Below, piece by piece: positions 41,843 to 57,981 of a stretch of 64,000 nucleotides of DNA. The notes beneath the pieces are model-generated. The model ran no database searches. It was not told where the DNA came from and worked only from the letters and a program-made list of their open reading frames with translations. The stretch is from Spirochaetota bacterium. GTDB lineage: Bacteria; Spirochaetota; UBA4802; UBA5550. Every line of letters starts with the position of its first letter. Within the stretch, counting starts at the first letter, position 1. The stretch is taken from contig JBGSQT010000014.1 of the NCBI GenBank assembly GCA_041737965.1, forward strand, positions 5,509-69,508, given 5' to 3'. Position numbers and translations under genes: made by a program.

Positions 41843-42538
41843 TTATTTTGCCTCTCCTCCATGGTAGGCAATGCTAAGATAATTAAAAATATCCTTTGCC
41901 GTTGTTATTGTTGATAAATCGGTGTCAATTTTGTCGTTTTCTCCAAGCACATGGCCATGGCCGATGATTACCGGTGTTTTTTGTACCTCAGAGCCTGATA
42001 GCAATAAAGACGATTTCCAGACAAGTGACGGTTGGCCGTTTACATCGCTGAAATTCTTGTCACCCTGTATCGCGGTTTTTGGGTAATGAACATTATAATC
42101 AAAGGATATATTCGATTCGATAAACACGTCAATTTTTTTTCCCATTAGATTTTCTGGAACCGGCCATTCGATGACAAATGTGTTTCCTGAAGGCGTGGCA
42201 CCGGTGACACTGTCAATGGTTGTTGGCGGCTCATTTTTCCTTATTCCGTTCCATACGGGCAACGCTGAAGGACGTGTTTTTGCACCCCACCAATTCTCCT
42301 TCGCTCCTTTTTTTGTCGCATATATCGTTTTATTTATTCCATCACCATTGATAGTTATCCAAACCGCTGTTTGAGGATAGAATGTTTTTATGAATTTTTT
42401 ATAGGAATCTGTATTAAAAGAAAATTTTATTTCAAGATAAGGTCTTGATTTATCTACATTGATTATTTCTGGATCATTTGCGCATGAAAAAAGAGGCAAC
42501 AAAAGCATAAAAATCATAATATGATTTATAATCCGCAT
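41843..42538 (-). CDS. DUF2271-like periplasmic lipoprotein
   Basis: GGAGG lies 8 nt upstream of the ATG at 42538. The lipobox is LLPLFSCAN. QTAVWITINGDG...ALPVWNG...IDSVTGATPSG resembles DUF2271. Codon usage is very AT-rich. Confidence 0.5.
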   Translation of the reverse strand: MRIINHIMIFMLLLPLFSCANDPEIINVDKSRPYLEIKFSFNTDSYKKFIKTFYPQTAVWITINGDGINKTIYATKKGAKENWWGAKTRPSALPVWNGIRKNEPPTTIDSVTGATPSGNTFVIEWPVPENLMGKKIDVFIESNISFDYNVHYPKTAIQGDKNFSDVNGQPSLVWKSSLLLSGSEVQKTPVIIGHGHVLGENDKIDTDLSTITTAKDIFNYLSIAYHGGEAK

Positions 42539-42615
42539 GATGAAAGCCTCCATAAAATATAAGAGTAATGATGATAGCATGGTAATTGTTTTTGTAAAGC
42601 TGTTTTATGGCAGCT

Positions 42616-43083
42616 TTATGTAAAAATGTGTTCTTTATGTTTTGGGAGACCCCAGTATGTTTTCCAACAGATTGCGTTTTTCACATATATTCGTGATAGA
42701 ATATGGCATTGCAGCTGATAGTTATCAATACTATTATTTTCAAATGTACTATTCTGGAAAGTTTCAATAATTTTATCCAAATAATGTTGAACAGCAGTGG
42801 AAAGAAGTAGAGAAGCAGACTGTTTAAAAAGTTTTCTCATGTCAAAAATGAATTCATAATCACGGGGATTCAAGAACAGATGAACACGTTTCCATTCGTC
42901 TCCCTGAATTTTTTTCTGATATTTGACAGCGTCTCCATAACGTAAATATTTGCCATGTTCATTGATAATTCGGTTAAAAAGCATAACAACCAACGTTGAA
43001 ACATCCCTTTGTATCGCTTCTGCGGCAAGTTCCAGTTTTATTTTTATTTTCGCGTTTGCATTTATGGTTGTGTGAATGCGCAT
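42616..43083 (-). CDS. Hypothetical protein, possible N-terminal ribbon-helix-helix
   Basis: AGGAGG lies 5 nt upstream of the ATG at 43083. The N-terminus MRIHTTINANAKIKIKLELAAEAIQRDVSTLVVMLFNRII has a strand-helix-helix look. No family is recognised. Confidence 0.45.
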   Translation of the reverse strand: MRIHTTINANAKIKIKLELAAEAIQRDVSTLVVMLFNRIINEHGKYLRYGDAVKYQKKIQGDEWKRVHLFLNPRDYEFIFDMRKLFKQSASLLLSTAVQHYLDKIIETFQNSTFENNSIDNYQLQCHILSRIYVKNAICWKTYWGLPKHKEHIFT

Positions 43084-43262
43084 CAGTGCCTCCTGGTGTT
43101 GGTAGTATTGAATAAACGGATGGAATAAAAAAAATAATAAAAAAATGAGAACCATTTCTCATGCATCCTGTCTATGGTATATCAATATCCGATAAACAAA
43201 ATTTTCGTAGGCGTTTACCGGAATTTGAAATTCATCATGCAGAGTCAAATGCGAGGTATGAA

Positions 43263-44648
43263 ATGAAGATGAGAACATTATTTTTGTCATCCGTAACTCT
43301 CGTTGTGTGCTCAATGATCCTTGGGGGAGATTATAGCGCAGCTGATGCCACTGTGGTCTCTGTCAAAAAAGGCATTAAAGATTACAATGTATATAGTTCC
43401 GTTGTTGCCAAAACTGTTGGCATGGTAAACGATCAAAAAGCGGTATCGCTGGCGACTCGTTACGGCTTAAACGTTCTTAACGTCACATGGGAAGACACGG
43501 GACGGTATCAGAATTCAGCAGTCGGTCCGAACATAAGCGATATGACGATCCAGGTTGAGCTTATGGATCCTGCATCAAGGCAGTATCAGCTCTATTGTAT
43601 GCCGGTAATACGTTTTTCGAATTTTGAAGACAAGACATGCGATGTCAGGATGGACAGGTTCTATGTATTGGTGGGAAATGAAAAGAACAGGGGGCTGCGG
43701 AAAATAAACCTTAGAGACCTTCTCGGTAATCTCAGAAATTATCTTACGCGCCCCGGCTCCTGGAAGGGAAACGGCAGATCCCTTCTCGCGAAAAGGGACA
43801 CTCATGTGCTTGTGAGCGCCCAGGCGTGCTTTCTTCCGATCCCTAAACAAGGCGACGCAATTTTTAATCCGGTGCTTTTCAATTACCAGTCGTATGCGAA
43901 AAATCCAGCGGTATTGACAATCCTTGCTACCAGGGAGGGGACAAGCATAACCATAATCGATAACCAGCGCGACGCTTTTAACGCGGGGGGTACCTGGGGT
44001 CAGCGTCTTTTCTTCAACCAGAATGGCGAACGGGCGAGCCTCATGGGTAAAAGGATGAGTGATTTTCTTAAAGAGCAAAAAGTTATCGCGGGAGGAGTAA
44101 AGAGTTCGGTTTCTGCGGGGAACGCTAAAGGATTGAACATGGTCCTACTGATACAGGTTCCGCTTAAACATAAATCGTTCTATAACGAGGAAGGCGTACT
44201 GCCGAGCGCGTCCATGGCCAAGCAGGAGTGTGAAGCATCACGGTGCCACCGTAGCGATGTAGAAAACGCCGTGATCGGTCACGGAAAAGTGGAGGGGCCT
44301 TATACGGAAATTGATAATCTGGCCATTGAAAGGGACGAACGGTTCCCGGTGAGGGTCACCGTCCAGTTTTATAAAGCGACCGGCAACGGTCTGGTGAACG
44401 ACAGGGACATGGCCGAGATCGCATCGCAGATTACGAAAGTGTATGCGGACGCTGATTACGTGGGAAGCCTCGTGGTTGACGGTAAAAACGGCCGTCCCAC
44501 GGAACATGACGGTCCTATGGATGAACCTCCCGGTTGGTGGGACTCCTTCTGGAGCCAGTATGAACATGAAAACGGACAGACCAGGGAAGATGCGATCCGG
44601 ATGTTCCGAAATCTGCTGGGCATTCACATCAGGCCTTTTTATCAGTGA
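43263..44648 (+). CDS. Hypothetical secreted protein (about 460 aa), no recognisable family
   Basis: GAGGT lies upstream of the ATG at 43263. The signal peptide is MKMRTLFLSSVTLVVCSMILGGDYSAADA. The ORF is long and uninterrupted, and a strong terminator follows. Confidence 0.6.
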   Translation: MKMRTLFLSSVTLVVCSMILGGDYSAADATVVSVKKGIKDYNVYSSVVAKTVGMVNDQKAVSLATRYGLNVLNVTWEDTGRYQNSAVGPNISDMTIQVELMDPASRQYQLYCMPVIRFSNFEDKTCDVRMDRFYVLVGNEKNRGLRKINLRDLLGNLRNYLTRPGSWKGNGRSLLAKRDTHVLVSAQACFLPIPKQGDAIFNPVLFNYQSYAKNPAVLTILATREGTSITIIDNQRDAFNAGGTWGQRLFFNQNGERASLMGKRMSDFLKEQKVIAGGVKSSVSAGNAKGLNMVLLIQVPLKHKSFYNEEGVLPSASMAKQECEASRCHRSDVENAVIGHGKVEGPYTEIDNLAIERDERFPVRVTVQFYKATGNGLVNDRDMAEIASQITKVYADADYVGSLVVDGKNGRPTEHDGPMDEPPGWWDSFWSQYEHENGQTREDAIRMFRNLLGIHIRPFYQ

Positions 44649-44667
44649 TTGGAACAGTGTGCGAGAA

Positions 44668-44696
44668 TAAAAGCGCCGGCCTACGCCGGCGTTTTT
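44668..44696. terminator. Bidirectional intrinsic terminator
   Basis: The pattern is an A-run, CGCCGGC (44674-44680), loop CTAC, GCCGGCG (44685-44691), then T5. It lies between convergent genes. Confidence 0.75.
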
Positions 44697-44729
44697 ATTG
44701 AGATGACATGATTGAATACTCGGGGCATA

Positions 44730-45293
44730 TCAGCTGAAAAGCATGATGGCCGCCGCGATGACCGTGGTCCAGTGGCCTTCCTTGTGGCCTTCGGCCGACT
44801 GTGATATGTTTCTTGTTTTGAATATATGGCCGCTGGTGCGGTATACCTGTTTGCGTTCGTCCCATGCCTGGTTCGGATCGAAGGGGATACCGAGGGTTGA
44901 TGCGAGCATCGTGGCGGCAAGGTCCTCGGCATAATCGCCCGATATTTTGGCGGTCTGTCCGAAAGAATGGTGCTCGGAAAGATACCCGTATGCTTCAACA
45001 TCCTTCGGCATGGCGATCCCGACTGAGGCCGAAACCAGCCTGTTCGGCTCATTGGTCTCGATTCTGGCCATGACGCAGAAGGTGATCTCGCCTGCGTTGA
45101 GATGCTTCAAGCCTTCCTGCTTGGAGATGATTCTGCACTTGGGCGGCAGAATGCTGGATACATAAACAAGGTTGCATTTTTCTATCCCGGCGTTTCGAAG
45201 CGCCAGCTCGAATGATGAAAGCTTGTTTTTATCCACCCCCACCCCTTTGGTGAGGAATAGTTTTTTGGGCACCAGGGGCATCAATTTTTCCAT
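44730..45293 (-). CDS. pdaD: Pyruvoyl-dependent arginine decarboxylase, canonical bacterial type (second copy)
   Basis: [45 protein letters not shown] and [35 protein letters not shown] closely follow the bacterial PdaD consensus as I recall it. The track start at 45326 is a TTG. The first ATG is at 45293 and the next at 45281. Confidence 0.85.
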
Positions 45294-45558
45294 AGCTTTC
45301 ACCGCCTCTTCAGATATGTATGACAAAGAATGTGAAAAAACGTATGTGACAAGGATTTTTTTATAAAGGGGTGATTTTTATTCAGCATACAGCCTCCAAA
45401 TGGGTCTAGCTTGCGCTAAAATATATCAGATTTATAATATATTTATATAAAAATCTTTACATATTTTATCAGCTTGATTGAATAGTTTAACTTTCCTTCG
45501 AGTCTGATAAAGGGGCCGTTTGAGCCGCTTGTATATACGGATTGTCCGGAGGTGTAGT

Positions 45559-47118
45559 ATGATCAATGTTATGAATCGCGATACTATCGGCGATATCACG
45601 CGACGCGCTGCGCTGCGATATCGTGACAAAAAGGCGATTGTGTTCAGGGATCGGGAGCTGACCTTCACGCAACTTGAAGAAGAGTCCTGCAGGTTCGCCA
45701 ACCTTATGCTGAAACTCGGCGTAAAAAAGGGGGACCGGATCGCCATTGACGCCTTCAATTCACATCTGTATCCTATAAGCTTTTTCGGTCTCGCCAAGAT
45801 CGGCGCGATACAGGTCCCGATCAATTTCATGCTTAACGGTGAGGAGATCTCCTATATCATAAACCATTCTCGGGCCAGTGTCCTAATCATTGAAGACTCG
45901 CTTTATCCGGTCATTGAGCCGGTACGCGACCGCTTTACGTCGATAAAAAACTGGGGCTTCATATCTCTCACCGGTACGCCGGCCCCGGCCGGGTTTTTCG
46001 ATCTGGAGTCGGAGATGAAGTCGATGCCGCCAGTGGAGCCCTTCGAGAATGTGGCGGCGGAAGATATCGCCCAGATACCCTACACCAGCGGCACCGAGTC
46101 CAGGCCCAAGGGGGCGATGCTTTCCCACCGAGCCCTGATGTCACAATATCATAGCTGCATTTTCGACGGAGAATACCGGAGCGGCGACATCTCGCTTCAT
46201 GCGCTTCCGCTGTTCCACTGCGCCCAGCTGCACTGTTTCCTGGTGCCCCTTCTCTATGTCGGCGCCGAGAACATAATCCATCACAAAGCGGATCCCGCGG
46301 CAATGATCAGCGACATAGAAAAATACGGCGTGACCCATATGTTCGCGCCTCCCACGGTCTGGATCGGGATTCTCAACCACCCGGAACTGAAAAAGCACGA
46401 TATGAGAACTCTCGTCAAGGCCGCCTACGGAGCCAGCATCATGCCGGTGGAAATAATCTCACAGCTCACCGGCACTTTCGGCGGCCTCAGGCTCTGGAAC
46501 TATTACGGACAGACCGAAATGGGGCCTGTGGCAACGATACTGAAGCCGGAAGACCAGCTGAAAAAGCCCGGTTCCGCGGGAAAGCCGGTACTCAACGTCG
46601 AGACAATGCTCATGGACGACGACGGAACCTTTGTCGGCCCTGATACCGTCGCCGAGATCGTGCATCGTTCCGGTCAGGTGATGACCGGATACCTCGACGA
46701 TCCGGAAAAGACCGCCGAATCCTTCGCCTTCGGCTGGTTTCACAGCGGCGATCTCGGAAGGTTCGATGAGGACGGATACCTCTATGTGGTGGACAGAAAA
46801 AAGGACATGATCAAGACCGGGGGCGAAAACGTCGCCTCCAGGGAAGTTGAAGAGGTGCTTTACCGGCATCCTTCGGTCGAAGAGGCCGCGGTGATCGGCC
46901 TGCCGGACCCGAAATGGATTGAACTGGTCACCGCCGTGGTGGTCCTTAAAAAAGGCGCGATTCTCTCGGAAAAGGACATCATCACCTATGCAAAGGAGCA
47001 CCTGGCCGGGTTCAAGTGTCCCAAACGGGTCGTAATCGCGGAAAAACTGCCTAAAAATCCCTCCGGGAAAATATTAAAGCGCGAGCTCAAACAGTCGCTG
47101 AAGGATGATCTGAACTGA
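45559..47118 (+). CDS. AMP-dependent acyl-CoA synthetase/ligase (ANL superfamily)
   Basis: GGAGGTG lies upstream of the ATG at 45559. The AMP-binding motif is IPYTSGTESRPKGAML. YGQTE, GWFHSGDLGRFDEDGYLYVVDRKKDMIKTGGENV and PSGKILKREL are also present. Confidence 0.9.
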   Translation: MINVMNRDTIGDITRRAALRYRDKKAIVFRDRELTFTQLEEESCRFANLMLKLGVKKGDRIAIDAFNSHLYPISFFGLAKIGAIQVPINFMLNGEEISYIINHSRASVLIIEDSLYPVIEPVRDRFTSIKNWGFISLTGTPAPAGFFDLESEMKSMPPVEPFENVAAEDIAQIPYTSGTESRPKGAMLSHRALMSQYHSCIFDGEYRSGDISLHALPLFHCAQLHCFLVPLLYVGAENIIHHKADPAAMISDIEKYGVTHMFAPPTVWIGILNHPELKKHDMRTLVKAAYGASIMPVEIISQLTGTFGGLRLWNYYGQTEMGPVATILKPEDQLKKPGSAGKPVLNVETMLMDDDGTFVGPDTVAEIVHRSGQVMTGYLDDPEKTAESFAFGWFHSGDLGRFDEDGYLYVVDRKKDMIKTGGENVASREVEEVLYRHPSVEEAAVIGLPDPKWIELVTAVVVLKKGAILSEKDIITYAKEHLAGFKCPKRVVIAEKLPKNPSGKILKRELKQSLKDDLN

Positions 47119-47173
47119 TCCGGATTGCCGTGACAGACTCGCTCCGGTCCGGGATGCGTTCCCGATTCACGCG

Positions 47174-47566
47174 CTAAAACAGGGTGTCGTACAGGAGTCC
47201 CTCACCGCCGGTGATGTGGGCGATGAAGCCGAAGAAATCCTCGTGGGTGATGTTTTTCTTTACGGTTTTTCCGCCGTAATTCGGACTATCGGTGAATTCG
47301 ATCTCCATAATAACGGAGTCTCCTTCGCAGGATATTCCGAAGCGATACGGTGAATTTCTCTCGCGGAGATACGAGTTCGCCAGTTCAACCGATTTGATAA
47401 GGTCCTGGATATTGTCCTTCACTTCTCCCGCGGTCGGTGCGGGTTCATCCGTCGCGGTCGCACGTTCGTCCTGCTTTTCCCTGGCGCCGTTTTTTTCCCT
47501 TTCCCGTTGAAGGATGGAAAGGGTCCCGCTCACCCTCTGGTTTACCGATGCCGTTGCTTCTTCCAT
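47174..47566 (-). CDS. Small protein, possibly FlaG-like
   Basis: AAGGAG lies upstream of the ATG. The C-terminal half (LIKSVELANSYLRERNSPYRFGISCEGDSVIMEIEF...ITHEDFFGFIAHITGGEGLLYD) loosely resembles FlaG. There is no flagellar context in the window. Confidence 0.35.
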   Translation of the reverse strand: MEEATASVNQRVSGTLSILQREREKNGAREKQDERATATDEPAPTAGEVKDNIQDLIKSVELANSYLRERNSPYRFGISCEGDSVIMEIEFTDSPNYGGKTVKKNITHEDFFGFIAHITGGEGLLYDTLF

Positions 47567-47703
47567 ACCGTCTCCTTGCAGTCTCCAATAGGAGTATCGG
47601 TCGGAATGGACGGGAGAATTAGTATATTATGTCGCAATAATTCTCACGCCGGCGTTCCGTACATCATTAAATGAACAGAATCGGATGTGCCCCATGGCCG
47701 GCG

Positions 47704-48426
47704 TTATTTTTTGATGTTCCGGCATTTCGATTTTAGAAATGTATCGAGTTCCTCGTTATTCTGATACTTGAAAATCACCTCGTCCCTGTCGTCGGGATCC
47801 ACCCTGAAAAGCTCTCTCAGGCTGACCTTGCAGCTGTTCCCGTATCCGTCAGAAATCACCGCCGTCCTCCAGAGCTGTGTAATCGGAATCTCTCCGGTGC
47901 GCCAGCCGTAATCGATCAGGATGCTCCCTTTTTCGGGAACCAGCTCCACCCCCCCTGATTTTTTCACCATTTCATCGAAGCGCACCAGGGGGGATGTTCT
48001 CACAATGAAGCCCTCCAGCTCAATCAGCTCACCCGTCTGTTTCGAAAAGACAGCCCTGTGTCCTCCTGGAAGTACCGCGGTTACGGAATCAGAAAGGGAG
48101 TCCTGAAATTCCGGTTCGGCCTTTGTCCTGAAGGGGAGGAGATGAAACATCCTTGAGCCGTCGGCTCTCGGCAGGAGCCCCACGTCATCAGTCCCGATAA
48201 AAACCATAAGCATCGAGTTCGTGTAAAAAGTGTAGCTCCTGTTTCTGTTGCTGTTGGCCCTGTATGTGTCGTAGCTCTGTTGTGCGCAGAAGGATAACAA
48301 TCCGCCTCTGCCCGCCTGAATCGTGATTTCAAGGTTGCCGAGCGTCACCTGCCTGTTTTCGGAGGCATTGAGTCCGGCAATAAGTGTCTCGGTTAAAAGC
48401 ATGAGGCAGATGATCCTGTTTTTCAT
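47704..48426 (-). CDS. Hypothetical secreted protein
   Basis: The signal peptide is MKNRIICLMLLTETLIAGLNASE. No family is recognised. The alternative start is at 48438. Confidence 0.5.
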   Translation of the reverse strand: MKNRIICLMLLTETLIAGLNASENRQVTLGNLEITIQAGRGGLLSFCAQQSYDTYRANSNRNRSYTFYTNSMLMVFIGTDDVGLLPRADGSRMFHLLPFRTKAEPEFQDSLSDSVTAVLPGGHRAVFSKQTGELIELEGFIVRTSPLVRFDEMVKKSGGVELVPEKGSILIDYGWRTGEIPITQLWRTAVISDGYGNSCKVSLRELFRVDPDDRDEVIFKYQNNEELDTFLKSKCRNIKK

Positions 48427-48706
48427 AATACTTTCCATGTATGGAATGTTCACGCACCGCGCAATGAGTTGACATCCGCTGTGCATAATGTCTCAATGGA
48501 ATCGATCATCGCAGCGGAAACATGTATCGTCAACATGATTTTCATGCGCGACTTTGAATTCATTGAGCTACGGGTTCTTAACTGGATGAGTATCCGCGGC
48601 CCTGTTCTCTGCTCAACATGACGGGGCCGGACTTGTTTACCTTATTGACATATTGCTAACTTTTGTATAGTTGTTTTTTCCACAATAAAAGTATACTATT
48701 AAAAAT

Positions 48707-49807
48707 ATGAAATCATTCCCATTCCGTGTATTCAAAACCGGCATCCTCACGCTGATAATGCTGACGCTTTTTTCCATAGTCCAGTCATGCAGCGCTCCAG
48801 AGACTGTCGACCCACAGCCCGAAAAACGCCCCGTCCTCTCTTCGAATCTTCGCAGCGGCAATGTCTATAATCCCAAGTCCGGCATTCGTCCCGTACGCAA
48901 GGTCAGGTTCGGTGAGATATGGGGCTATCTGCTGAAAGGCGAGGAGGGGAGCGTTCGGGGGGACGAGCCATTCACCGACCTCTGTTATTTTTGCGCGTCC
49001 ATCACTTCAGGCGGGAGGATGAGCGGCTCATGCGTGCCGCCGGCGATAGTGTGGAAGGGGAGAGCCGCGCCGAGACTGCATATGGTCGTGGCGATGATAG
49101 GCAACCCGGCCCTGGTCCGTCACAGCATCGATCCCAAGGGACCCGCGAGGGGCGATTTTATAAAGGATATTGTGGAGGCCTCGAAACAGTTCGACGGGGT
49201 GCAGATCGATTTCGAATCTCTTCCCCCCTCGGACGGCCAATCATACCTCGAATTCATCCGGGAGCTCAAGAAACAGCTCGATCCTTCCAAAACACTCAGT
49301 GTCGCCCTCCCGGCGCGGAGAAAAAAACTGGCCGAGGACGCCTACGATTATGCGGTTCTTTCAGAGGCGGCAGACCGGCTGGTGGTGATGGCGTACGACC
49401 AGCACTGGAAGACCAGCCGGCCGGGACCTGTGGCGTCACTCCCCTGGTGCAGGGAGGTGCTGGCCTACTCGAAATCGGCGATCCCCTCTGAAAAGCTTAT
49501 CATGGGGCTTCCCCTGTACGGCAGGGAGTGGCTCGACAACAGCGAACACAGGGCGCTTAAATTCCGTCAGGTGAAGGAGATACTGGAGAAATCGGGGATG
49601 AGCCCCAGCTACAATCGAGAAAAGGGGCTGTATTTCGAATATGAAGGCTCCGTAAAAGGTCAGGTCTATTACGATGATCACAGGACCCTGCTGGAGAAGC
49701 TGTACCTTTACCGTTCCGCCGGCGTACGGGCCGTGTCATTCTGGCGCATCGGCCAGGGGCCGGAGAAACTCTGGCGGTACATCGTCCCCTCGCCGCCGAA
49801 AATCTGA
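48707..49807 (+). CDS. Glycoside hydrolase family 18 lipoprotein (YaaH/YdhD-like, peptidoglycan/chitin-type)
   Basis: The lipobox is IVQSCSA. The catalytic region FDGVQIDFE is the DGxxIDFE variant of DxxDxDxE. MAYDQHW and LPLYGREW are also present. Confidence 0.7.
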   Translation: MKSFPFRVFKTGILTLIMLTLFSIVQSCSAPETVDPQPEKRPVLSSNLRSGNVYNPKSGIRPVRKVRFGEIWGYLLKGEEGSVRGDEPFTDLCYFCASITSGGRMSGSCVPPAIVWKGRAAPRLHMVVAMIGNPALVRHSIDPKGPARGDFIKDIVEASKQFDGVQIDFESLPPSDGQSYLEFIRELKKQLDPSKTLSVALPARRKKLAEDAYDYAVLSEAADRLVVMAYDQHWKTSRPGPVASLPWCREVLAYSKSAIPSEKLIMGLPLYGREWLDNSEHRALKFRQVKEILEKSGMSPSYNREKGLYFEYEGSVKGQVYYDDHRTLLEKLYLYRSAGVRAVSFWRIGQGPEKLWRYIVPSPPKI

Positions 49808-49812
49808 CGCCG

Positions 49813-50307
49813 TCAGGGAACGAGTTTTTTCATGAAGACGATCTTGCCGTCCCCGGGAGCGTAAAAATCCTCAAAATCCGCTGCCGCAATGTATCCGTTC
49901 GCGAGATAGAATTCCCTGGTGGAGCGGTACTGTTCCCGCGACGAGGTGTCGGCATAGATCCTCTCCCCGCCGTTCCTCCGAACCTCGTCCTCTGTCATGG
50001 CCAGAAGAGCTCTCCCGGCTCCCTTTCCCTGAAGATCGCGCCGCACCGCGATCCAATAGAGGTCGTAACTTGACCGGGTGAGCGGTATCACGCCGTAGCA
50101 GGAGTATCCCCTGAGCCCCTCGGGGCCGTCCAGGAAAATGAACCGGTAATCGCCCGCATCGCCCTTATCCAGCGTTTCCTGCACCAGTTCCCTGGCGATG
50201 TCGATTTCGGCGGAATAAAAGAAACCGGTCGCCTCCAGCAGCGCGGTCACCGACTTCAGGTCTTCCGGCACCGGTGCCGTGCGTATTTCTCCGTGTAATT
50301 TTTCCAT
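49813..50307 (-). CDS. GNAT-family N-acetyltransferase (last gene of the kamA operon)
   Basis: 164 aa with the acetyl-CoA motif A region IAVRRDLQGKGAGRALL. It lies 16 nt downstream of the ATP-grasp gene. Confidence 0.8.
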   Translation of the reverse strand: MEKLHGEIRTAPVPEDLKSVTALLEATGFFYSAEIDIARELVQETLDKGDAGDYRFIFLDGPEGLRGYSCYGVIPLTRSSYDLYWIAVRRDLQGKGAGRALLAMTEDEVRRNGGERIYADTSSREQYRSTREFYLANGYIAAADFEDFYAPGDGKIVFMKKLVP

Positions 50308-50323
50308 AATCGAGCCCTTTCCC

Positions 50324-51289
50324 TTACCGGCATTCCACTATGCGCCGTATCACCCGGTCGTAATCAATCCCCGCCCGCGCCGCCGCGGCGATAAATCCGG
50401 CGTCCGACGAGAGGCAGGGGTTCGCGTTTATCTCCAGTATCCAGGGCGTGCCGTTGTCGTCGACCCGGAAATCGACCCTTGCGTATCCCCGGAGCCCGAA
50501 TTCCCGCCAGCACCGCAGCGAGAGGTCGCGGAGGGTCTCCAGCAGCGGGCCGTCTCCGGGCGGGAAATCGAACGAACGCGCCGTGTTCCGGTATTCCGGG
50601 GCATCCTGGTCCCACTTGGCCCGGTAGTCGACGATTTTCGGTTTACCCGCATGGTAGCCGACAAACCGGATCTCCGCCGGGGGGAGCACTTCGGGCCCGG
50701 AAGGCCCGCAGATAAGGGATATGTTGAATTCCCGTCCGTCTATGTACTTTTCCGCAAAGCATTCTGATCCGAACCTTCCGGAAAAATTTTCGTGCCAATT
50801 GGTTGCGCCGGATTCGATCGGTATCACCGAACACTCGTCGATGCCGGCGGAACCGTGCTCCCAGTTCGACTTCACCAGATAGAGGCCGCTTTCAGGCGCC
50901 GGCTCTCCGAACGCCGCAAAGGCGGGCGTGGGGAGGCCGGCCCGCCGCATTTCCCCTTTCGCCGACATCTTGTCGGTGGTCCTGGCAATGGCCCGCCAGG
51001 GCGATCCGGTAAAGGGGATGTTCGCCGATTCCAGGAGCGCAGGCGCCAGGTGGAGCAGGCGGTCGTGCCCCTCCAGCGATTCCACGAGGTTGAACACCAT
51101 CCACGGGCCGGCCGCCTGCAGTTCCCGCAAAGTCTTTCCGAGATCCAGCGTCATCGCCAGCGGAAGCGACTCGTACCCGATTCTGCCGAGCGATCCGGCG
51201 ATTTCGTCGCGCTGGACAAGCGTGTCCCGGTCGTCGCCGGCGGCGTCCTCAGGGATGAAGGGATACAGCAGTGCCACGGTCTTTTTCAT
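50324..51289 (-). CDS. D-Ala-D-Ala-ligase-like ATP-grasp enzyme (copy 2 in operon order)
   Basis: 321 aa. IPFTGS, DKMSAKGEMRRAGLPTPAF, YIDGREF and the C-terminal GYARVDFRVDDNGTPWILEINANPCLS are typical of the Ddl-family ATP-grasp. Confidence 0.8.
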   Translation of the reverse strand: MKKTVALLYPFIPEDAAGDDRDTLVQRDEIAGSLGRIGYESLPLAMTLDLGKTLRELQAAGPWMVFNLVESLEGHDRLLHLAPALLESANIPFTGSPWRAIARTTDKMSAKGEMRRAGLPTPAFAAFGEPAPESGLYLVKSNWEHGSAGIDECSVIPIESGATNWHENFSGRFGSECFAEKYIDGREFNISLICGPSGPEVLPPAEIRFVGYHAGKPKIVDYRAKWDQDAPEYRNTARSFDFPPGDGPLLETLRDLSLRCWREFGLRGYARVDFRVDDNGTPWILEINANPCLSSDAGFIAAAARAGIDYDRVIRRIVECR

Positions 51290-51298
51290 CGGGGTGGA

Positions 51299-52309
51299 TC
51301 AGGCTTCCGCGAGCCGCGCCGGTGCGGAGGCGGTCAGGCCGTGCCGGGCCAGGGCGGATTTCATTATATCGGCGATCAGGCTCCTGTAGGTGATGCCGCG
51401 CGAGGTGCAGATGATCGGAAGGTCCGAGTGCTCCGGGTGCAGGCCGGCCAGGGGATTGATCTCGATAAACGAAGGCCTCCCGGAGGCGTCGCACCGCAGG
51501 TCCACCCTGCCGGCGTCGAGGCATCCAAGTCCCCGCCACGACGCGATGGCTATCTCCTCCGCCTCCCGGGACGCGTCGTCGTCGATTTTTTGATACTTCA
51601 CCAGCTCCTCGCAGTTCTCCTTGTTCGCGTAGGAATAGGCGAGCCGCTCCGCACCCTTCAGCAGTATGATCTCCACCGTCCCGGCGACCCTGGCATCGTC
51701 CCCGCTTCCGATTATGCCCACGGTGAATTCCCGGCCCGGGAGATATTCCTCCACCAGCACCGGCTGTCGATACTGCGCCAGAAGGCGGCGGCACAGGCCA
51801 TCCAGCTCTTCGGGGCTGCCGATAAAGGAGGATGGAGAAATCCCCTTGCCGGTGCCTTCTGAATAGGGTTTTGCGAAGAGGGGAAAAGAAATCGCGACAT
51901 TTTTGACATCCTCGGGACGTCGCACGAGAAAAAAGTCCGGCGTCGGCAGGCCGAGGTCCCGGATTACGCGCTTGGTCATCGCCTTGTGCAGACATAGGGA
52001 GAGAACGCAGGGATCGGAAAAAGTATAGGGGATCTCGTAGGCGTCCAGCAGCGCCGGAACCTGGGCCTCCCTTCCGATGCCGCGCAGCCCCTCGGCGATA
52101 TTGAAGACGATGTCCCACCGCCTCCCCCGCGTCAGTAGGTCCGCGAGGCTCCGTATGTGCCCGATCCGCTCGGTGGCGAATCCAAGGTCCCGGAGCGTCG
52201 AGTCGATGGCGTCGATGGTGGCGACGGAATCGAACTCTGCGATATCCTCCTCGGAATATCCCTCGGCCCGGTACTGGTCCCTCAGGTCATAGGTGATTCC
52301 GACAAGCAT
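51299..52309 (-). CDS. D-Ala-D-Ala-ligase-like ATP-grasp enzyme (copy 1 in operon order)
   Basis: The real start is the ATG at 52309 (MLVGITYDLRDQYRAEGYSEEDIAEFD...), which overlaps the kamA stop as ATGA. IPYTFSD, HKAMTKRVIRDLGLPTPDF, YLPGREFTVG and GRVDLRCDASGRPSFIEINPLAGL are present. The track ORF extends upstream into non-coding-looking RG-rich sequence. Confidence 0.8.
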   Translation of the reverse strand: MLVGITYDLRDQYRAEGYSEEDIAEFDSVATIDAIDSTLRDLGFATERIGHIRSLADLLTRGRRWDIVFNIAEGLRGIGREAQVPALLDAYEIPYTFSDPCVLSLCLHKAMTKRVIRDLGLPTPDFFLVRRPEDVKNVAISFPLFAKPYSEGTGKGISPSSFIGSPEELDGLCRRLLAQYRQPVLVEEYLPGREFTVGIIGSGDDARVAGTVEIILLKGAERLAYSYANKENCEELVKYQKIDDDASREAEEIAIASWRGLGCLDAGRVDLRCDASGRPSFIEINPLAGLHPEHSDLPIICTSRGITYRSLIADIMKSALARHGLTASAPARLAEA

Positions 52310-53667
52310 CAGCCCCGGGCCGCCGTGTCCGGATAATCGAATCGTCCTCCCTGGTAGTTCCGGAGCACCACCGCGTCGCCGTCGCGGCCCTGATAATAAT
52401 CCGGAATAAGCGGTATTTTGCCCCCGCCCCCCGGCGCGTCGATGACGTAGTGGGGGACCGCGAAACCGGTGGTGTGCCCTCTGAGCCCCTCGATGATCTG
52501 CAGCCCCCTGGATACCGGGGTCCTGAAATGGGACGAGCCGCTGATGGGATCGCACTGGTACAGGTAATAGGGGCGAACCCGGCAGGTGAGCAGGCGCTGA
52601 TAGAGCTCCTTCATCACCGTTACGTCGTCATTGATCCCTTTAAGGAGCACGGTCTGGCTTCCCAGCGGAATGCCGGCGTTGGCGAGCCTGGTGCAGGCGG
52701 TGTGCGTTTCCGGGGTGATCTCCTCCGGATGAGTAAAATGGATGTTCATCCAGAGGGGATGGTATTTTTTCAGCATATTCGTGAGCTTCATGGTGATCCG
52801 CTGGGGCAGCACCGCAGGGACTTTCGTGCCGATTCTTATGATTTCGACGTGGGGGATTCTCCTGATCCTGGCCAGGAGCCATTCCAGCGCCGCGTCAGGC
52901 AGAGTGAGCGGGTCTCCTCCCGAGATCAGCACATCCCTTATTGTGGGGGTCGCTTCGATGTAGGCGGCGCCGGCCTCCCAACGGGCCCTGGATGTCTGGC
53001 GGTCCGCCGACCGCCCCACCATCCTTGACCTGGTGCAGTACCTGCAGTTTGTCGAGCAGAAGTCGGTGGCCATGAACAGCACCCTGTCCGGATAGCGGTG
53101 CACGAGGCCGGGAACGGGGCTGTCATTGTCCTCATGAAGCGGATCGTCTGATTCGCCGTCGGACCGGTACAGTTCGTTCACCACCGGGACCACGCTTCTC
53201 CGCAGGGGGTGCCCCGGGTCCTTCGCCTTCAGCAGGCTGGCATAGTACGGTGTTATGGAAAGGGGGAGGGACCCGTTGGCGTAGGTGAGCGCCTGCACCT
53301 CCTCCTCCGAAAGCTTGAGAAACCTCGCGAGCTGTTCGGCGGTGCAAATTCTGTTCTGGAGCTGCCATCGCCAGTCGTTCCACTGGGCAGTTGACGCATT
53401 GGGATAATAGAGTTTCCTGAAGGTGCGGGTTTTCAAAGATGACGAGTGCTTGTGAATCGGGACAGGTCGGTCGGTAAATGAGGCGTTGTTGTACAGAGAC
53501 GGAAACAATTGCGGAAAAAGCGTATTTTCCGAAAGGCCCGCTGAAGGGGGAGGCTCCTCCGTATCGCCCTCTTCGAGCTCTTCGGGAGAGAATAAAAGCA
53601 TGCTGGGAGGCTCCTGGGATTCCTCCATAACCGACTGCTCTGCTGAAAGTGAAGCGTTTTTTTCCAT
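52309..53667 (-). CDS. kamA: Lysine 2,3-aminomutase-family radical SAM/PLP enzyme (KamA/AblA-like) with an N-terminal extension
   Basis: QWNDWRWQLQNRI, the radical SAM cluster CSTNCRYCTRS, ISGGDPL, YLYQCDPISGSSHFRT and VIDAPGGGGKIP are present. About 95 acidic/Pro-rich residues precede the conserved core. GAGGT lies upstream of the ATG at 53667. Confidence 0.85.
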   Translation of the reverse strand: MEKNASLSAEQSVMEESQEPPSMLLFSPEELEEGDTEEPPPSAGLSENTLFPQLFPSLYNNASFTDRPVPIHKHSSSLKTRTFRKLYYPNASTAQWNDWRWQLQNRICTAEQLARFLKLSEEEVQALTYANGSLPLSITPYYASLLKAKDPGHPLRRSVVPVVNELYRSDGESDDPLHEDNDSPVPGLVHRYPDRVLFMATDFCSTNCRYCTRSRMVGRSADRQTSRARWEAGAAYIEATPTIRDVLISGGDPLTLPDAALEWLLARIRRIPHVEIIRIGTKVPAVLPQRITMKLTNMLKKYHPLWMNIHFTHPEEITPETHTACTRLANAGIPLGSQTVLLKGINDDVTVMKELYQRLLTCRVRPYYLYQCDPISGSSHFRTPVSRGLQIIEGLRGHTTGFAVPHYVIDAPGGGGKIPLIPDYYQGRDGDAVVLRNYQGGRFDYPDTAARG

Positions 53668-53731
53668 CCTAATTTACCTCACGGTACTTGTGTTCGCATC
53701 TTCGGGATGCCTGCTAAAAAAAGCTGATAAT

Positions 53732-53759
53732 TAAATAGTACAAGCCCCTTTCATGTCAA
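53732..53759 (-). promoter_or_regulatory. Possible sigma70-type promoter of the kamA operon
   Basis: On the minus strand the pattern is TTGACA (53759-53754), a 16-nt spacer, then TATTTA (53737-53732). It sits in an AT-rich gap about 65 nt upstream of the kamA ATG. Confidence 0.35.
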
Positions 53760-53828
53760 TACTTATTATTCTATAATTCGTTATAAAATTAAAAAAAATT
53801 AAATTTTTCGGCCGGAAAAACCAGGAAT

Positions 53829-53868
53829 TTGACGTAACACTGTTATGTGCGTAACAGTGTTACGTCAA
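53829..53868. repeat. Perfect 17-bp inverted repeat with 6-nt spacer
   Basis: The arms are TTGACGTAACACTGTTA (53829-53845) and TAACAGTGTTACGTCAA (53852-53868), separated by tgtgcg. The repeat starts 6 nt after the stop of the 53875..54939 gene and lies about 70 nt upstream of the putative kamA -35 box. Confidence 0.7.
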
Positions 53869-53874
53869 TTGGTG

Positions 53875-54939
53875 TCATCTCAGGAAAAAATTCCTCTCAC
53901 CCACCAGCTGTCCCCCGGCAGTCCAAACCTCCACGGTATACTTTCCCGGGCCTTCCATCAACCTGTGGCGGGACCATGTCCTGAAGCCTTCCTTTCTGCC
54001 GCCGTAAAGGTCCTTTATATCAACCGTAAACAGCATTTGTCCGTTGTGACGCCAGACATGAAGCATCCGTTCCTTCAAACCCCTGGGCGCTGATATCGAA
54101 GAAAAAAAACAGACCTCATCGACCGTTCCCGCGGGCATTGAAACGAAGGAATTCACCGGGCTGTGGCCGGCAATTGATTCGCAGGCCCCCGCGCTCACCA
54201 GGGTGAGGGGCGCCGGAGGTATCGCGCTTCTGCCGAACCAGAGAAGGGCCAGGAACGCGATGATGCCGGTCAAGGAGAGAAAGGTGTTTTTCCAGCCTTT
54301 CAGGAGCGGGATATGGGGGTTGATAAAAAGCACCACAAGCAATGACGCGATCGTCCCGGAGACAAGAAGGCTCCAGATGTTTCTCATGCCGAAGACCACC
54401 GGAAACACCAGATTGAGAACGCAGAAGATCGTCAGGGAGTAAAAGAAGGAGCCTATAACGGGATAGGGGAGAATAAACCGCCGATAGAGCGCGTACCAGT
54501 GCGCAAGCACCGCCAGCAGGAGAAGAACCGGGGCAAAGACCATATTTACCGAAGGGACAGTCATGGACTCGAAGTAAAAGGGAACTGCGAAAAGAAGCAT
54601 GTCGTTGATCAGGAACAGGAGCGCCGTGTCCCATACTTTCGGGAGCACGCCCCCGCGGCGGTGGATTTGCATCCTGAAAGTGAGATAAAAAAACGCGAAC
54701 AGGGCGGACACCAGGACCACCGGTGCGTATTCGTAGCCTTTCCTGAGAAGGAGTATGCAGAAGATGCTGGTTGCCAGCGCCATGAGCGGCTGAAGCTTCA
54801 TTATCCGGGTGAATACCGGCGGGGACGCGGCCACGACGTCGGAAAGGTACCGGATGTGCCCCTTCAGGCCCGGTTCATGGGCCTCGCGGGGAGGGAACCC
54901 CTCGGTCAGCCGGCGCCGGAGGGAATTGAAGGCCTTCAT
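53875..54939 (-). CDS. DUF5924/DUF2914-type polytopic membrane protein
   Basis: About 8 TM segments are followed by a C-terminal soluble domain (VWRHNGQMLFTVDIKDLYGGRKEGFRTWSRHRL..GKYTVEVWTAGGQLVGERNF) that resembles DUF2914. Confidence 0.65.
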   Translation of the reverse strand: MKAFNSLRRRLTEGFPPREAHEPGLKGHIRYLSDVVAASPPVFTRIMKLQPLMALATSIFCILLLRKGYEYAPVVLVSALFAFFYLTFRMQIHRRGGVLPKVWDTALLFLINDMLLFAVPFYFESMTVPSVNMVFAPVLLLLAVLAHWYALYRRFILPYPVIGSFFYSLTIFCVLNLVFPVVFGMRNIWSLLVSGTIASLLVVLFINPHIPLLKGWKNTFLSLTGIIAFLALLWFGRSAIPPAPLTLVSAGACESIAGHSPVNSFVSMPAGTVDEVCFFSSISAPRGLKERMLHVWRHNGQMLFTVDIKDLYGGRKEGFRTWSRHRLMEGPGKYTVEVWTAGGQLVGERNFFLR

Positions 54940-54940
54940 T

Positions 54941-56170
54941 CTACAGCTTCAGGCGGCTGAAGCGCTCCATCGCCTCCGCCACGTCTTCCCGTTTCCCGAA
55001 CGCGGTGAGCCGGAAATAGCCCTCGCCGCACCGCCCGAAACCCGAGCCGGGGGTGCCCACCACCTGGCACTGCTCCAGAAGCCGGTGAAAAAAATCCCAT
55101 GAGGAGAGGCCGGCCGGGGCCTTGAGCCATATATAGGGTGAATTGACGCCCCCGGTACACTCGATGCCCAGTTTCTGGAGCCCTTCCCGGATTATGCGGG
55201 CGTTTCCGAGATAGTAGCGTATGGTGGCGTCGATTTCCGCACGCCCCCTGTCGGTAAACGCCGCTTCCGCCCCCTTCTGGATGACATAGGCGACGCCGTT
55301 GAATTTCGTGGCCTGGCGCCTGTCCCACAGATTGAGGATGGAATGGGCCGAACCGTCGTCGCCGTACAGGCAGGCCTCTTTCGGCACAATGGTATATGAG
55401 AGCCTCGTGCCGGTGAATCCGGCGGTTTTGGACAGGCTCCTGAATTCCACCGCCACTTCACGGGCCCCGGGAATCTCAAAAATGCTGTGCGGAACCGAGT
55501 CGTCGGTAATGAATGCTTCATAGGCGGCGTCATAGAGGATGAGCGCCCTGTGCTCCCTTGCGTAATCGACCCACTGCTTCAGGTCGTCCTTCATCGCCAC
55601 CTGGCCGGTGGGATTGTTGGGAAAGCAGAGGTAGATCAGGTCAACCGGTTTTTCCGGCAGTGACGGCCTGAAACTGTTTGCATGGGTGCAATCCAGGTAG
55701 GTTATACCCTCATACCGCCCATCCGAATAGTCGCCGGTACGGCCGGCCATGACGTTGCTGTCCACATACACCGGATAGACCGGGTCCGGCACGGCGATGG
55801 CGGTGTCATGATGGAACAGCTCCTGTATGTTCGCGGTGTCCTCCTTCGCGCCGGTTGAGATGAAAATCTCCTCCGCGTCGATGTCGATACCCCGCCTCCT
55901 GAAATCGCGGTCCGCGATCTTTTCCCGCAGAAATTCGTACCCCCTGTCGGAACGGTACCCCCGGAAGGTGCCGCGGTGCGCCATTTCCTCCACCGCGGAC
56001 TTCATCGCCTCCGTCACCGCGGTTCCGAAAGGCTCGGTGACATCGCCGATACCGAGGCGGATCACCCGCTCCCCCTGATGGCTCTGCTGGTACATCGCCA
56101 CCTGTTTCGCTATTTCCGAAAAGAGATAGCTCCCCGCCAGTTTCCTGTAATGCGGATTCATTCTTATCAT
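54941..56170 (-). CDS. dapL: LL-diaminopimelate aminotransferase (DapL)
   Basis: NPHYRKLAGSYLFSEIAKQV...VIRLGIGDVTEPF, CFPNNPTG and the PLP-lysine region SLSKTAGFTGTRLSY are present. I chose the ATG at 56170, with GGAG 8 nt upstream. Confidence 0.85.
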   Translation of the reverse strand: MIRMNPHYRKLAGSYLFSEIAKQVAMYQQSHQGERVIRLGIGDVTEPFGTAVTEAMKSAVEEMAHRGTFRGYRSDRGYEFLREKIADRDFRRRGIDIDAEEIFISTGAKEDTANIQELFHHDTAIAVPDPVYPVYVDSNVMAGRTGDYSDGRYEGITYLDCTHANSFRPSLPEKPVDLIYLCFPNNPTGQVAMKDDLKQWVDYAREHRALILYDAAYEAFITDDSVPHSIFEIPGAREVAVEFRSLSKTAGFTGTRLSYTIVPKEACLYGDDGSAHSILNLWDRRQATKFNGVAYVIQKGAEAAFTDRGRAEIDATIRYYLGNARIIREGLQKLGIECTGGVNSPYIWLKAPAGLSSWDFFHRLLEQCQVVGTPGSGFGRCGEGYFRLTAFGKREDVAEAMERFSRLKL

Positions 56171-56227
56171 GTCAGGAACTCCAGTATCATAAATTGACGA
56201 TTCCCGCACCGGCCCGCCGACTGCGGA

Positions 56228-56560
56228 TCAGCTGTGCCGGTATTTGATGACCTTCATCTTTTCGAGGGTCACGAGCCCTTCGGTCACGGTCTCGTCGATG
56301 AAAGGCATAATTTTTTCGATGTTCTCTTCGGTGTCAACAATTTCTACGACCATTGGAAGATCGATGGAGAGATCCATGAGTTTTGCCGAATGGATCCTGC
56401 TGTCGGCGCCGAAGCCGAGGACGCCCCTGAGCACCGTCGCTCCGGCAAGGTTCAGCTCCCTGGCCTTCAGCACGATTTGCTCGTACAGCGGCTTGCTGCG
56501 GTACCGGTCGCTTTCGCCGATAAAGACGCGAAGCATGACCGCCTGTTCCGGTAATTTCAT
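56228..56560 (-). CDS. DUF190 (PII-like, CrcB-associated) protein
   Basis: 110 aa reading MLRVFIGESDRYRSKPLYEQIVLKARELNLAGATVLRGVLGFG, typical of DUF190. It lies 4 nt after crcB. Confidence 0.8.
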   Translation of the reverse strand: MKLPEQAVMLRVFIGESDRYRSKPLYEQIVLKARELNLAGATVLRGVLGFGADSRIHSAKLMDLSIDLPMVVEIVDTEENIEKIMPFIDETVTEGLVTLEKMKVIKYRHS

Positions 56561-56564
56561 CGGA

Positions 56565-56960
56565 TCACCCCGCCTTCAGGACCCTTATCGCGATCCTGCA
56601 TAGATAAATGCCGCCCCACGCGGCGGCCAGAGACAGACAATTGTTCGCCAGAACGTTGTACAGTGCGTAACGGAGCTCTCCGTCCTGAATCAGCGCCATG
56701 GTTTCGAGCGAGAATGTTGAAAATGTCGTAAAGGCTCCCAGAAGGCCCACGGTGAAAAACCCCTTCATATCCGGAGATGCGTTGAATTCGTCGAATAACA
56801 CATAGAGAAATCCGAGGACAAAGCTGCCGGCGATGTTGACCGCCGCGGTGCCCATGGGGAACGCGGTATTCGCCGTCTGGGTGATGAACCGGGAGACGCC
56901 GAACCGGAGCAGGGCTCCGACTGAACCTCCGAGCGCGATGGGTACAAGCAGTCGTATCAT
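56565..56960 (-). CDS. crcB: Fluoride ion channel CrcB/FluC
   Basis: The sequence is MIRLLVPIALGGSVGALLRFGVS...FPMGTAAVNIAGSFVLGF...GLLGAFTTFSTFSLE. AGGA lies upstream of the ATG at 56960. The longer track ORF adds a non-coding-like N-terminus. Confidence 0.9.
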   Translation of the reverse strand: MIRLLVPIALGGSVGALLRFGVSRFITQTANTAFPMGTAAVNIAGSFVLGFLYVLFDEFNASPDMKGFFTVGLLGAFTTFSTFSLETMALIQDGELRYALYNVLANNCLSLAAAWGGIYLCRIAIRVLKAG

Positions 56961-57165
56961 GGTTTCCTTTTGGCCGCGGCGTGACGATGGGGGCCCGGCA
57001 GCGCCTTCGGCCTGATCCGCCGCATGATGCGTACAGGAGATTCCACCGGGCGACTCCATGTCAATAAGATTTTACCCGATGACTGAAAATTTTTTGATAT
57101 TGCCGGGCGTTCCGGACATGCCGCAATCCGGGTCCCCGGCGGGTTCACTGTTTCAGAAGCGGCAG

Positions 57166-57981
57166 TCAGAACGATATCTTTTTAGACTTGATTTCGAGGC
57201 CGAAGAGGCTGCGGCAGCTGGCGTCGAACATTTCTGTTGAATCGGTGGTGAAGTAGGAAACGGAGCCGTTTTTGGTGCATGCGCGGTCGATTTCGGGGTG
57301 CCGGGAAAGGTAGTCGGTGAGGCTTTCCGCCACGATGCTGTCCTGGGGGATCACGGCGATTCCCGGGGCAACGTGCCTTGTAATGGTTTCCAGGAGCACC
57401 GGATAATGGGTGCACCCGAGGAGCACCACGTCGATCTCCGGGTCCTTTTCCATGAGGTTTCTGATGTGCCTTTCCACGAAATAATCGGTCCCCGGATTGT
57501 GAAGCTCGTCGTTTTCCACCAGCGGGACCCACATCGGGCACGCTTCCTGGGTCACCCTGATATGGGGGAAGAGCTTTTGTATCTCCATCGGATAGGAGTT
57601 TGACGTGACGGTGCCCAGCGTGCCGAGGACGCCGATATGTTTGGTCTTCGACAGGGAGTCGATCGCTTCCACCGTGGGGCGGATGACCCCGAGCACGCGC
57701 CGCGACGGATCGAGGTGCGGCAGGTCGCGCTGCTGGATTGTCCTCAGCGCCTTGGACGAGGCGGTATTGCAGGCGATGATCACCAGCTGGCAGTCGAACC
57801 TGAACAGGAGCTTCACCGCGGAAAGGGTGTAGGAGTACACCGTTTCAAAGGACCTGTTCCCGTACGGTGTCCTGGCGTTATCGCCGAGATAGATGAAATC
57901 GTATCCGGGCAGTGTGCGGATGAATTCTTTCAGTATCGTCAAACCGCCGTATCCGGAATCAAACACGCCAATGGGTCCCAT
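57166..57981 (-). CDS. murI: Glutamate racemase
   Basis: IGVFDSGYGGLT, the IIACNTASS Cys motif and LGCTHYP are present. Confidence 0.9.
   Translation of the reverse strand: MGPIGVFDSGYGGLTILKEFIRTLPGYDFIYLGDNARTPYGNRSFETVYSYTLSAVKLLFRFDCQLVIIACNTASSKALRTIQQRDLPHLDPSRRVLGVIRPTVEAIDSLSKTKHIGVLGTLGTVTSNSYPMEIQKLFPHIRVTQEACPMWVPLVENDELHNPGTDYFVERHIRNLMEKDPEIDVVLLGCTHYPVLLETITRHVAPGIAVIPQDSIVAESLTDYLSRHPEIDRACTKNGSVSYFTTDSTEMFDASCRSLFGLEIKSKKISF

Follow-up and report, generated by a model that had tools for sequence, protein, structure and literature searches.

What does a bacterium make when a gene for a lysine 2,3-aminomutase is followed, on the same strand, by genes for two ATP-grasp ligases and an acetyltransferase of the GNAT family? 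The question is raised by a four-gene cassette at 49813-53667 of a 64,000-nucleotide stretch of DNA from a Spirochaetota bacterium (assembly GCA_041737965.1, contig JBGSQT010000014.1, positions 5,509 to 69,508). We refer to this whole stretch as the window; positions are those of the window unless they carry an L number, which denotes a related locus in another genome. The cassette matches no described pathway that we found, and probably encodes a route to a beta-lysine-derived small molecule that depends neither on ribosomes nor on non-ribosomal peptide synthetases (NRPS). Our preferred reading, to which we give a probability of roughly 0.55, is that the cassette makes an N-acetylated beta-lysine di- or tri-amide in the cytoplasm.

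Gene order and phylogenetic spread of the cassette

All four consecutive open reading frames (ORFs) lie on the minus strand. The first, kamA (53667..52309), encodes 452 amino acids (aa) with the Pfam domains LAM_C and Radical_SAM. It is followed by ATP-grasp ligase 1 (52309..51299, 336 aa) and ATP-grasp ligase 2 (51289..50324, 321 aa), each with a Dala_Dala_lig_C domain, and by the GNAT gene (50307..49813, 164 aa, Acetyltransf_1). These domains agree with a preliminary description of the DNA, which had named a kamA, two Ddl-like ATP-grasp genes and a GNAT in a tight same-strand operon. Its gaps of 9 nt between the ligases and 16 nt between ligase 2 and the GNAT gene are also found in the sequence. 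The ATGA overlap that it placed at 52307-52311 has to be corrected: the coding strand reads TGATG, so that the kamA stop (TGA, 52311-52309) and the ligase 1 start (ATG, 52309-52307) have a single base in common. This start is set by the homologues of ligase 1, all of which open with M..G.TYDL.

To see how widely the arrangement occurs, we scanned one genome per GTDB species for relatives of ligase 1 and found them in at least 597 species-level genomes, a count that is a lower bound. The best 80 of these loci were compared, and 82 loci were examined in total, with gene order determined by tblastn searches with the four window proteins and counted over evaluable loci. A kamA gene lies directly upstream of ligase 1 in 74 of 77 loci, and ligase 2 directly downstream of it in 67 of 72. 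The GNAT gene comes after ligase 2 in 51 of 58 loci, either directly (35) or past a 1.8-kb insert (16). The four-gene order thus recurs collinearly in nearly all of the 82 unrelated loci, which puts the arrangement far beyond chance.

Relatives of ligase 1 at 60-75% identity were found in metagenome-assembled genomes (MAGs) of Spirochaetota, Thermodesulfobacteriota, Omnitrophota, KSB3 and Pseudomonadota. The best 80 loci span about a dozen phyla and include Spirochaetota, many Desulfobacterota orders, Syntrophales, KSB1, WOR-3, Sumerlaeota, Bacteroidota/Ignavibacteriales, Phycisphaerae (Planctomycetota), Thermoanaerobaculia (Acidobacteriota), Krumholzibacteria and Marinimicrobia; carriage by Omnitrophota was found by a separate look-up. 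The closest cassettes belong to Spirochaetota MAGs. According to the record titles, carriers were sampled from a freshwater lake, groundwater, fen, soil or sediment, marine biofilm and a sulfidic spring. Among cultured organisms, Desulfovibrio mangrovi has the order sigma-54 activator, kamA, ligase, ligase, GNAT and GNAT/HDAC.

The four enzymes and their predicted product

The sequence strongly supports KamA as a genuine lysine 2,3-aminomutase (LAM) that would convert L-lysine to beta-lysine. It is 55% identical over 358 residues to the Clostridium subterminale enzyme (PDB 2a5h), and in the alignment it keeps C125, C129, C132, R134, D293, D330 and K337, and the conservation of each of these across 73 cassette KamAs is 95% or higher. 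We take D293 and D330 to hold the epsilon-ammonium group of lysine, R134 to contact its carboxylate, K337 to be the pyridoxal phosphate lysine, and the three cysteines to bind the Fe-S cluster. The preliminary description had recognised the enzyme by the motifs QWNDWRWQLQNRI, CSTNCRYC, YQCD and VIDAPGGGGK, and had taken the two Asp-containing ones, YQCD and VIDAPGGGGK, to carry the lysine-binding residues. All four are present in the translation, and retention of both Asp residues relative to 2a5h supports lysine as the substrate. KamA also passes the NCBIfam model of the KamA subfamily, TIGR00238, with 350.5 bits against a cut-off of 199.2.

Comparison with more specific models places the enzyme nearest to AblA. 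The AblA equivalog is its best-scoring model, yet the cut-off is just missed (487.4 versus 525.4 bits) because the last ~60 model positions, which form the C-terminal domain, are absent. Likewise, the alignment with clostridial LAM stops at residue 365 of 416, so that the C-terminal domain of that enzyme is missing, and KamA has an Asp at LAM position C268; C268 and the Cys-rich C-terminus presumably serve Zn binding and tetramerisation in the clostridial enzyme. The score against the glutamate 2,3-aminomutase model is 431 bits (cut-off 650), and KamA retains both of the lysine-binding Asp residues that are presumably replaced by Lys/Asn in that enzyme. KamA also falls short of the EpmB model (264.1 bits, cut-off 369.3) and is 32% identical to Escherichia coli EpmB. 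An N-terminal extension of ~80 aa, acidic and proline-rich, is not conserved, which leaves the true start of KamA uncertain.

The two ligases are 25% identical to each other and each 25-30% identical to E. coli DdlB. Both keep the ATP/Mg and catalytic residues of DdlB (K215, R255, D257, E270 and N272) and the three-domain fold, which makes them ATP-grasp enzymes. They score far under the Ddl family cut-off of 243 bits (139.4 for ligase 1 and 99.2 for ligase 2), neither matches the Pfam domain Dala_Dala_lig_N, and residues around the Ddl substrates have changed. DdlB Y216 is Glu (E231) in ligase 1, within an invariant N-K-E, and Trp in ligase 2. The S281-L282 pair is S-D in ligase 1, where the Asp (D296) belongs to an invariant H-S-D, and A-G in ligase 2, while G276 is Gly in ligase 1 and Cys in ligase 2. 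These scores and the replacement of Y216, S281 and L282 rule out that the ligases are bona fide Ddl enzymes. Their genomic context also differs from that of Ddl, with kamA and a GNAT gene in place of mur/fts genes.

In ligase 1, the N-terminal loop additionally carries several invariant acidic residues, and the acidic pattern as a whole would fit a cationic substrate such as beta-lysine. The AlphaFold 2 (AF2) model of ligase 1 has a predicted local distance difference test score (pLDDT) of 91.5, and its top match in Foldseek is Pseudomonas DdlB (8evz, E = 6e-24, template modelling score ~0.74-0.8). The predicted Ddl fold has all three domains and includes the omega-loop region, consistent with a closed small-molecule active site. 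Across phyla, ligase 1 is ~60-65% identical, as conserved as KamA, and ligase 2 ~37-50%. We suggest that ligase 1 is the enzyme that handles beta-lysine and that the second amide bond is the work of ligase 2.

The GNAT has an acetyl-CoA-type motif, Q/RxxGxG/A. Its sole close solved relative is PDB 2r7h (E = 1.5e-35), a structural-genomics protein that its depositors named 'putative D-alanine N-acetyltransferase'. In contigs matching Oleidesulfovibrio alaskensis G20, the cassette GNAT is 99% identical to 2r7h, and both Oleidesulfovibrio and D. mangrovi have a GNAT of the 2r7h type in this cassette. No match of the GNAT to the AblB model was found in NCBIfam at E <= 0.01; its best model was RimI, with 25 bits.

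Two variants of the cassette bear on the role of this acetyltransferase. In two Spirochaetota loci (L061:7999-9558 and L042 ~8050-9561), a single 519-aa ATP-grasp::GNAT fusion (Acetyltransf_3) replaces ligase 2 and the GNAT. By the Rosetta-stone argument, this fusion indicates that acylation and the second ligation are parts of a single pathway. The other variant is the 1.8-kb insert between ligase 2 and the GNAT gene, which encodes a ~600-aa protein whose N-terminal GNAT domain is weakly matched and whose HDAC/acetylpolyamine-amidohydrolase domain is strongly matched. This fusion was found inside or beside the cassette in at least 16-23 loci (for example L020:8969-10768, L001:10046-11799 and L085:9629-11386, with about 20 other loci), and in D. 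mangrovi it comes after the small GNAT. The window holds no HDAC homologue. HDAC-family enzymes deacetylate primary amines that resemble lysine side chains or polyamines. Because an HDAC-type deacetylase accompanies many cassettes, the epsilon-amine of the beta-lysyl unit would be the likely site of the acetyl group, which would be removable.

Taken together, the cassette could work as follows. KamA would turn L-lysine into beta-lysine, the step with strong sequence support. Ligase 1 would then activate a carboxylate as an acyl phosphate and form the first amide bond involving beta-lysine; we assign this step to ligase 1 because it is conserved like KamA, is the most tightly linked gene and has an acidic active-site lining. 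Ligase 2 would add a second amide bond, to a further amino acid or a second beta-lysine. Finally, the GNAT would acetylate a free amine, for which the epsilon-amine on the beta-lysyl unit is the likeliest candidate. The acetyl group might cap the final product and neutralise its charge, as it does in N-epsilon-acetyl-beta-lysine and N-acetylglutaminylglutamine amide (NAGGN), or it might serve as temporary protection while the carboxyl is activated, to be removed by the HDAC fusion where that is present. The product would be small and retained in the cell, since no exporter or immunity gene is conserved. Its physiological role could be that of a stress protectant, a nitrogen-linked role or another.

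Two known systems build comparable molecules. NAGGN synthesis by Ngg and AsnO also combines a GNAT with an ATP-grasp enzyme to make a capped small peptide without ribosome or NRPS, and the ATP-grasp::GNAT fusions of L042 and L061 resemble Ngg. In contrast to that system, the cassette ligases are of the Ddl type and beta-lysine would come from a radical-SAM mutase (Ngg was compared by architecture). Moreover, no AsnO-like amidotransferase was found among the conserved cassette neighbours, which sets the cassette apart from NAGGN synthases. In glutathione-type synthesis two ATP-dependent ligases act in sequence, and the second domain of GshF is Ddl-like. By analogy, two sequential cassette ligases would give a small cytoplasmic tripeptide. 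The cassette, however, lacks a homologue of gamma-glutamylcysteine ligase, would use beta-lysine as building block and would add an acetyl cap. By such comparisons, it looks like a cross between the AblAB pathway and the logic of NAGGN synthesis, with ligases of the Ddl type.

Several points weigh against an acetylated amide as the common product. The GNAT gene is absent from 7 of the 58 evaluable loci and a few loci have kamA and ligase 1 alone, so the product may differ between lineages. Pairing of a GNAT with a deacetylase could reflect regulation or turnover instead of biosynthetic logic. At ~60% identity between phyla, ligase 1 is unusually well conserved for an enzyme of secondary metabolism, which could indicate a macromolecular partner. 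Carriers live not only at marine sites but also in freshwater, groundwater, fen and soil; this mixture of habitats weakens a purely salt-related role and does not favour a classical salt-stress solute. Finally, we infer both the product and its role, and the ligase substrates are likewise putative.

Among the reduced loci, two from WOR-3 have kamA and ligase 1 only, followed by a convergent Peptidase_S58 gene of the DmpA/BapA type (L030:1639-2784 and L021:4266-5390, both on the minus strand). Known members of the DmpA/BapA family cleave N-terminal beta-amino acids. The pairing is weak evidence, as the two genomes are related, and may be mere synteny. Inspection of two loci without an adjacent kamA (L060 and L071) showed no alternative precursor enzyme.

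Transcription and genomic neighbourhood

In the window, the cassette is preceded by a perfect inverted repeat at 53829..53868 on the minus strand. Its 17-nt arms (53829-53845 and 53852-53868) are 100% complementary and enclose a 6-nt loop. As RNA, the hairpin has a folding energy of -28 kcal/mol (z = -5.96, with 0 of 200 shuffles equally stable). It is followed by a U-run and lies directly 3' of the stop codon of the upstream gene, which encodes a DUF5924/DUF2914 membrane protein. From its sequence, the hairpin is probably terminator-like, ending upstream transcription and isolating the cassette, which would therefore form its own transcription unit. The presumed promoter region, 53668..53828 on the minus strand, is AT-rich (GC 0.46) and contains a TTGACA ... 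TATTTA pair. The AT-rich promoter region of the preliminary description thus stands as regards composition, but the pair was rejected by a consensus promoter scan, which accepted no sigma-70 promoter upstream of kamA. No sigma-54 -24/-12 element was found there either (best match 6/11), and Rfam searches of the window returned no riboswitch or leader RNA; the window also has no tRNA genes. The window cassette appears to have an ordinary promoter of its own behind the terminator-like hairpin.

Other lineages differ in this respect. Sigma-54 -24/-12 promoters matching at 10 or more of 11 positions were identified upstream of kamA in 12 of 66 regions (L062, L038, L007, L073, L072, L064, L052, L029, L026, L025, L011 and L009), compared with 0 of 66 coding-sequence controls. 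A sigma-54 enhancer-binding protein of the response-regulator type is encoded nearby in 24 loci, the cultured Desulfovibrio among them (examples are L085:3857-5293 and L086:3874-5310). Promoters of this kind and adjacent enhancer-binding proteins indicate that expression is conditional in a subset of lineages; both are lacking from the window. On the Oleidesulfovibrio alaskensis-like contig, a SiaC/DUF6272/SpoIIE-phosphatase/GGDEF module (L086:9684-13179, minus strand) adjoins the cassette downstream on the opposite strand and resembles a SiaABCD-like cyclic di-GMP switch.

To see what travels with the cassette, we clustered the flanking ORFs all against all and searched the 139 immediate neighbours with Pfam. 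Genes for transporters, amidotransferases, a Mur ligase set or lysine fermentation were not enriched among the 139; the enrichment that we saw, with Fpg and PhoU, was lineage-specific synteny only. None of the four cassette proteins matched a PADLOC defence model, and we dropped an anti-phage defence system as a candidate on this ground. In ~20 of the 82 loci (L001:5976-6251, L002:5646-5906, L007:2613-2909 and ~17 others), a same-strand gene upstream of kamA encodes a small conserved protein with a core of ~80 aa, which is absent from the window. The protein carries the motif GVVIPxDWDExGxV...T.DE.EY.V....G.EL......VEV.G.V, and its C-terminus is not conserved. It belongs to no Pfam family; 4 homologues were retrieved, its AF2 model has a low pLDDT of 62.6, and Foldseek gave no significant match.

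The window genes dapL (54941-56209) and murI (57166-57981), both identified with NCBIfam, lie upstream of the cassette, as the preliminary description had noted in proposing a link to precursor supply. The genes are there, but among the 82 related loci dapL is found in none and murI in three, so that the proposed link is best seen as a coincidence of this genome. The cassette genes have a GC content at third codon positions (GC3) of 0.71-0.78, the same as dapL and murI, and this equality leaves recent horizontal acquisition of the cassette unsupported. The interval between dapL and murI (56228-57059, minus strand) contains a gene for a CrcB fluoride exporter and, ahead of it, a 110-aa ORF without an NCBIfam match; Rfam detected no fluoride riboswitch anywhere in the window. 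The DUF5924/DUF2914 gene (53875-54939, minus strand) encodes a 354-aa multi-pass membrane protein without an NCBIfam name and is not conserved beside the cassette elsewhere.

Downstream of the cassette, a GH18-like gene runs towards the GNAT gene, and its end is 5 nt away from the GNAT stop. At 4.5-8 kb downstream of the cassette are genes for a pyruvoyl-dependent arginine decarboxylase of polyamine synthesis (44730-45326, minus strand) and a fatty-acyl-CoA synthetase (45520-47118, plus strand), neither of which is conserved near the cassette in other genomes. Neither Pfam nor NCBIfam gave a match for the ORFs at 43161-44648 (plus strand, 495 aa), 47174-47566 (minus strand, 130 aa) and 47704-48486 (minus strand, 260 aa). 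The GC content of 40000-49812 is 0.48, markedly under the window mean of 0.56.

Alternative products and biological meaning

Other products would account for parts of this evidence. One possible reading, though doubtful, has two alternative forms. In the first, the cassette would make a new class of NRPS-independent beta-lysine oligo-amides, for example an epsilon-linked beta-lysyl-beta-lysine core with a further residue and transient N-acetyl protection, serving as a cytoplasmic polycation, protectant or nitrogen reserve in anaerobes of a dozen phyla; in the second, ligase 1 would transfer beta-lysine to a macromolecule independently of EpmA.

It is unlikely that the ligases act as polymerases of an epsilon-linked oligo-beta-lysine resembling the streptothricin side chain, with GNAT and HDAC tuning the charge or toxicity of a polycation, nitrogen store or antimicrobial. 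The presence of two ligases, one with an acidic substrate pocket, would agree with such a product, which the HDAC would re-activate, and the sigma-54 link would suit nitrogen-related control. Furthermore, the classic streptothricin resistance enzymes are GNATs that acetylate beta-lysine amines. Against this, Ddl-type enzymes normally form one defined bond and not polymers, and no exporter or immunity gene is conserved.

Still less likely is an osmolyte pathway that ends at plain N-acetyl-beta-lysine, with the ligases unrelated or auxiliary. AblA and AblB make N-epsilon-acetyl-beta-lysine in methanogens and some bacteria, and Bacillus subtilis has kamA-yodP. Like ablA/ablB, the cassette joins a LAM-type aminomutase and a GNAT in one operon, uses beta-lysine as building block and would probably yield an acetylated cytoplasmic product. 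AblA being the best-scoring model for KamA also speaks for this osmolyte, and an HDAC-type deacetylase would suit N-epsilon-acetyl turnover. The differences are that the cassette GNAT, at 164 aa, has no AblB match, that KamA lacks the C-terminal domain and scores 487 against 525 bits, and that two Ddl-like ligases stand between aminomutase and GNAT. The ligases keep this position in 67 of 72 loci and are translationally coupled. The linkage of ligase 1 to kamA (74/77) is even tighter than that of the GNAT (51/58), and the habitats of the carriers are not salt-specific.

A target in the form of a protein or other macromolecule, either elongation factor P (EF-P) or the ~80-aa upstream protein, beta-lysylated by the ligases without EpmA, is improbable. 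As in the EpmA/EpmB system, a KamA-family aminomutase would feed beta-lysine to an ATP-dependent ligation, the conservation of ligase 1 is unusually high and the small protein is conserved upstream of kamA in ~20 of 82 loci. To our knowledge, EF-P modification is not known in most of the carrier phyla. Unlike EpmB, however, the cassette aminomutase is LAM-like, and the ligases are ATP-grasp enzymes, not a LysRS paralogue. We reject EF-P as the target, considering that neither efp nor epmA was found in the window or at any of the 82 loci. The small protein is missing from the window and from most loci, and its C-terminus varies. In addition, the ligase model predicts a compact Ddl fold in which a loop would close over small substrates, and conditional sigma-54 expression in some lineages is unexpected for the housekeeping modification of a translation factor.

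Modification of the cell wall, with the Ddl-like enzymes building an alternative dipeptide of beta-lysine or a D-amino acid for peptidoglycan precursors, is very improbable. The homology of the ligases to Ddl, the proximity of murI, dapL and the GH18-like gene in the window and the depositors' name for 2r7h all point in this direction. Nevertheless, that name is a guess from context and not from an assay, murI and dapL recur in 3 and 0 of the 82 loci, Mur ligases occur in 2 of the 139 neighbours, and the ligases have lost the Ddl substrate residues and score far under the Ddl cut-offs. Finally, clostridial lysine fermentation begins with KamA, but lysine catabolism with beta-lysine as first intermediate has a negligible chance of being correct, as kamDE, kdd, kce and kal are not among the conserved neighbours and ATP-consuming ligases with a GNAT are anabolic.

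No description of the cassette was found in the literature that we searched, where there is at most an ablAB-type annotation, and an account beyond the searchable literature is possible. NCBIfam and the curated family libraries contain no model specific to the cassette. This agrees with the preliminary description, whose author knew of no characterised cluster of such composition.

The cassette is found in the uncultured anaerobes that make up the majority in sediments and groundwater. It would define two new substrate specificities in the Ddl branch of the ATP-grasp ligases, and it gives a functional context to 2r7h, until now an orphan structure. As cultured and genetically tractable Desulfovibrio and Oleidesulfovibrio carry the cassette behind a dedicated sigma-54 activator, the proposed pathway is testable.

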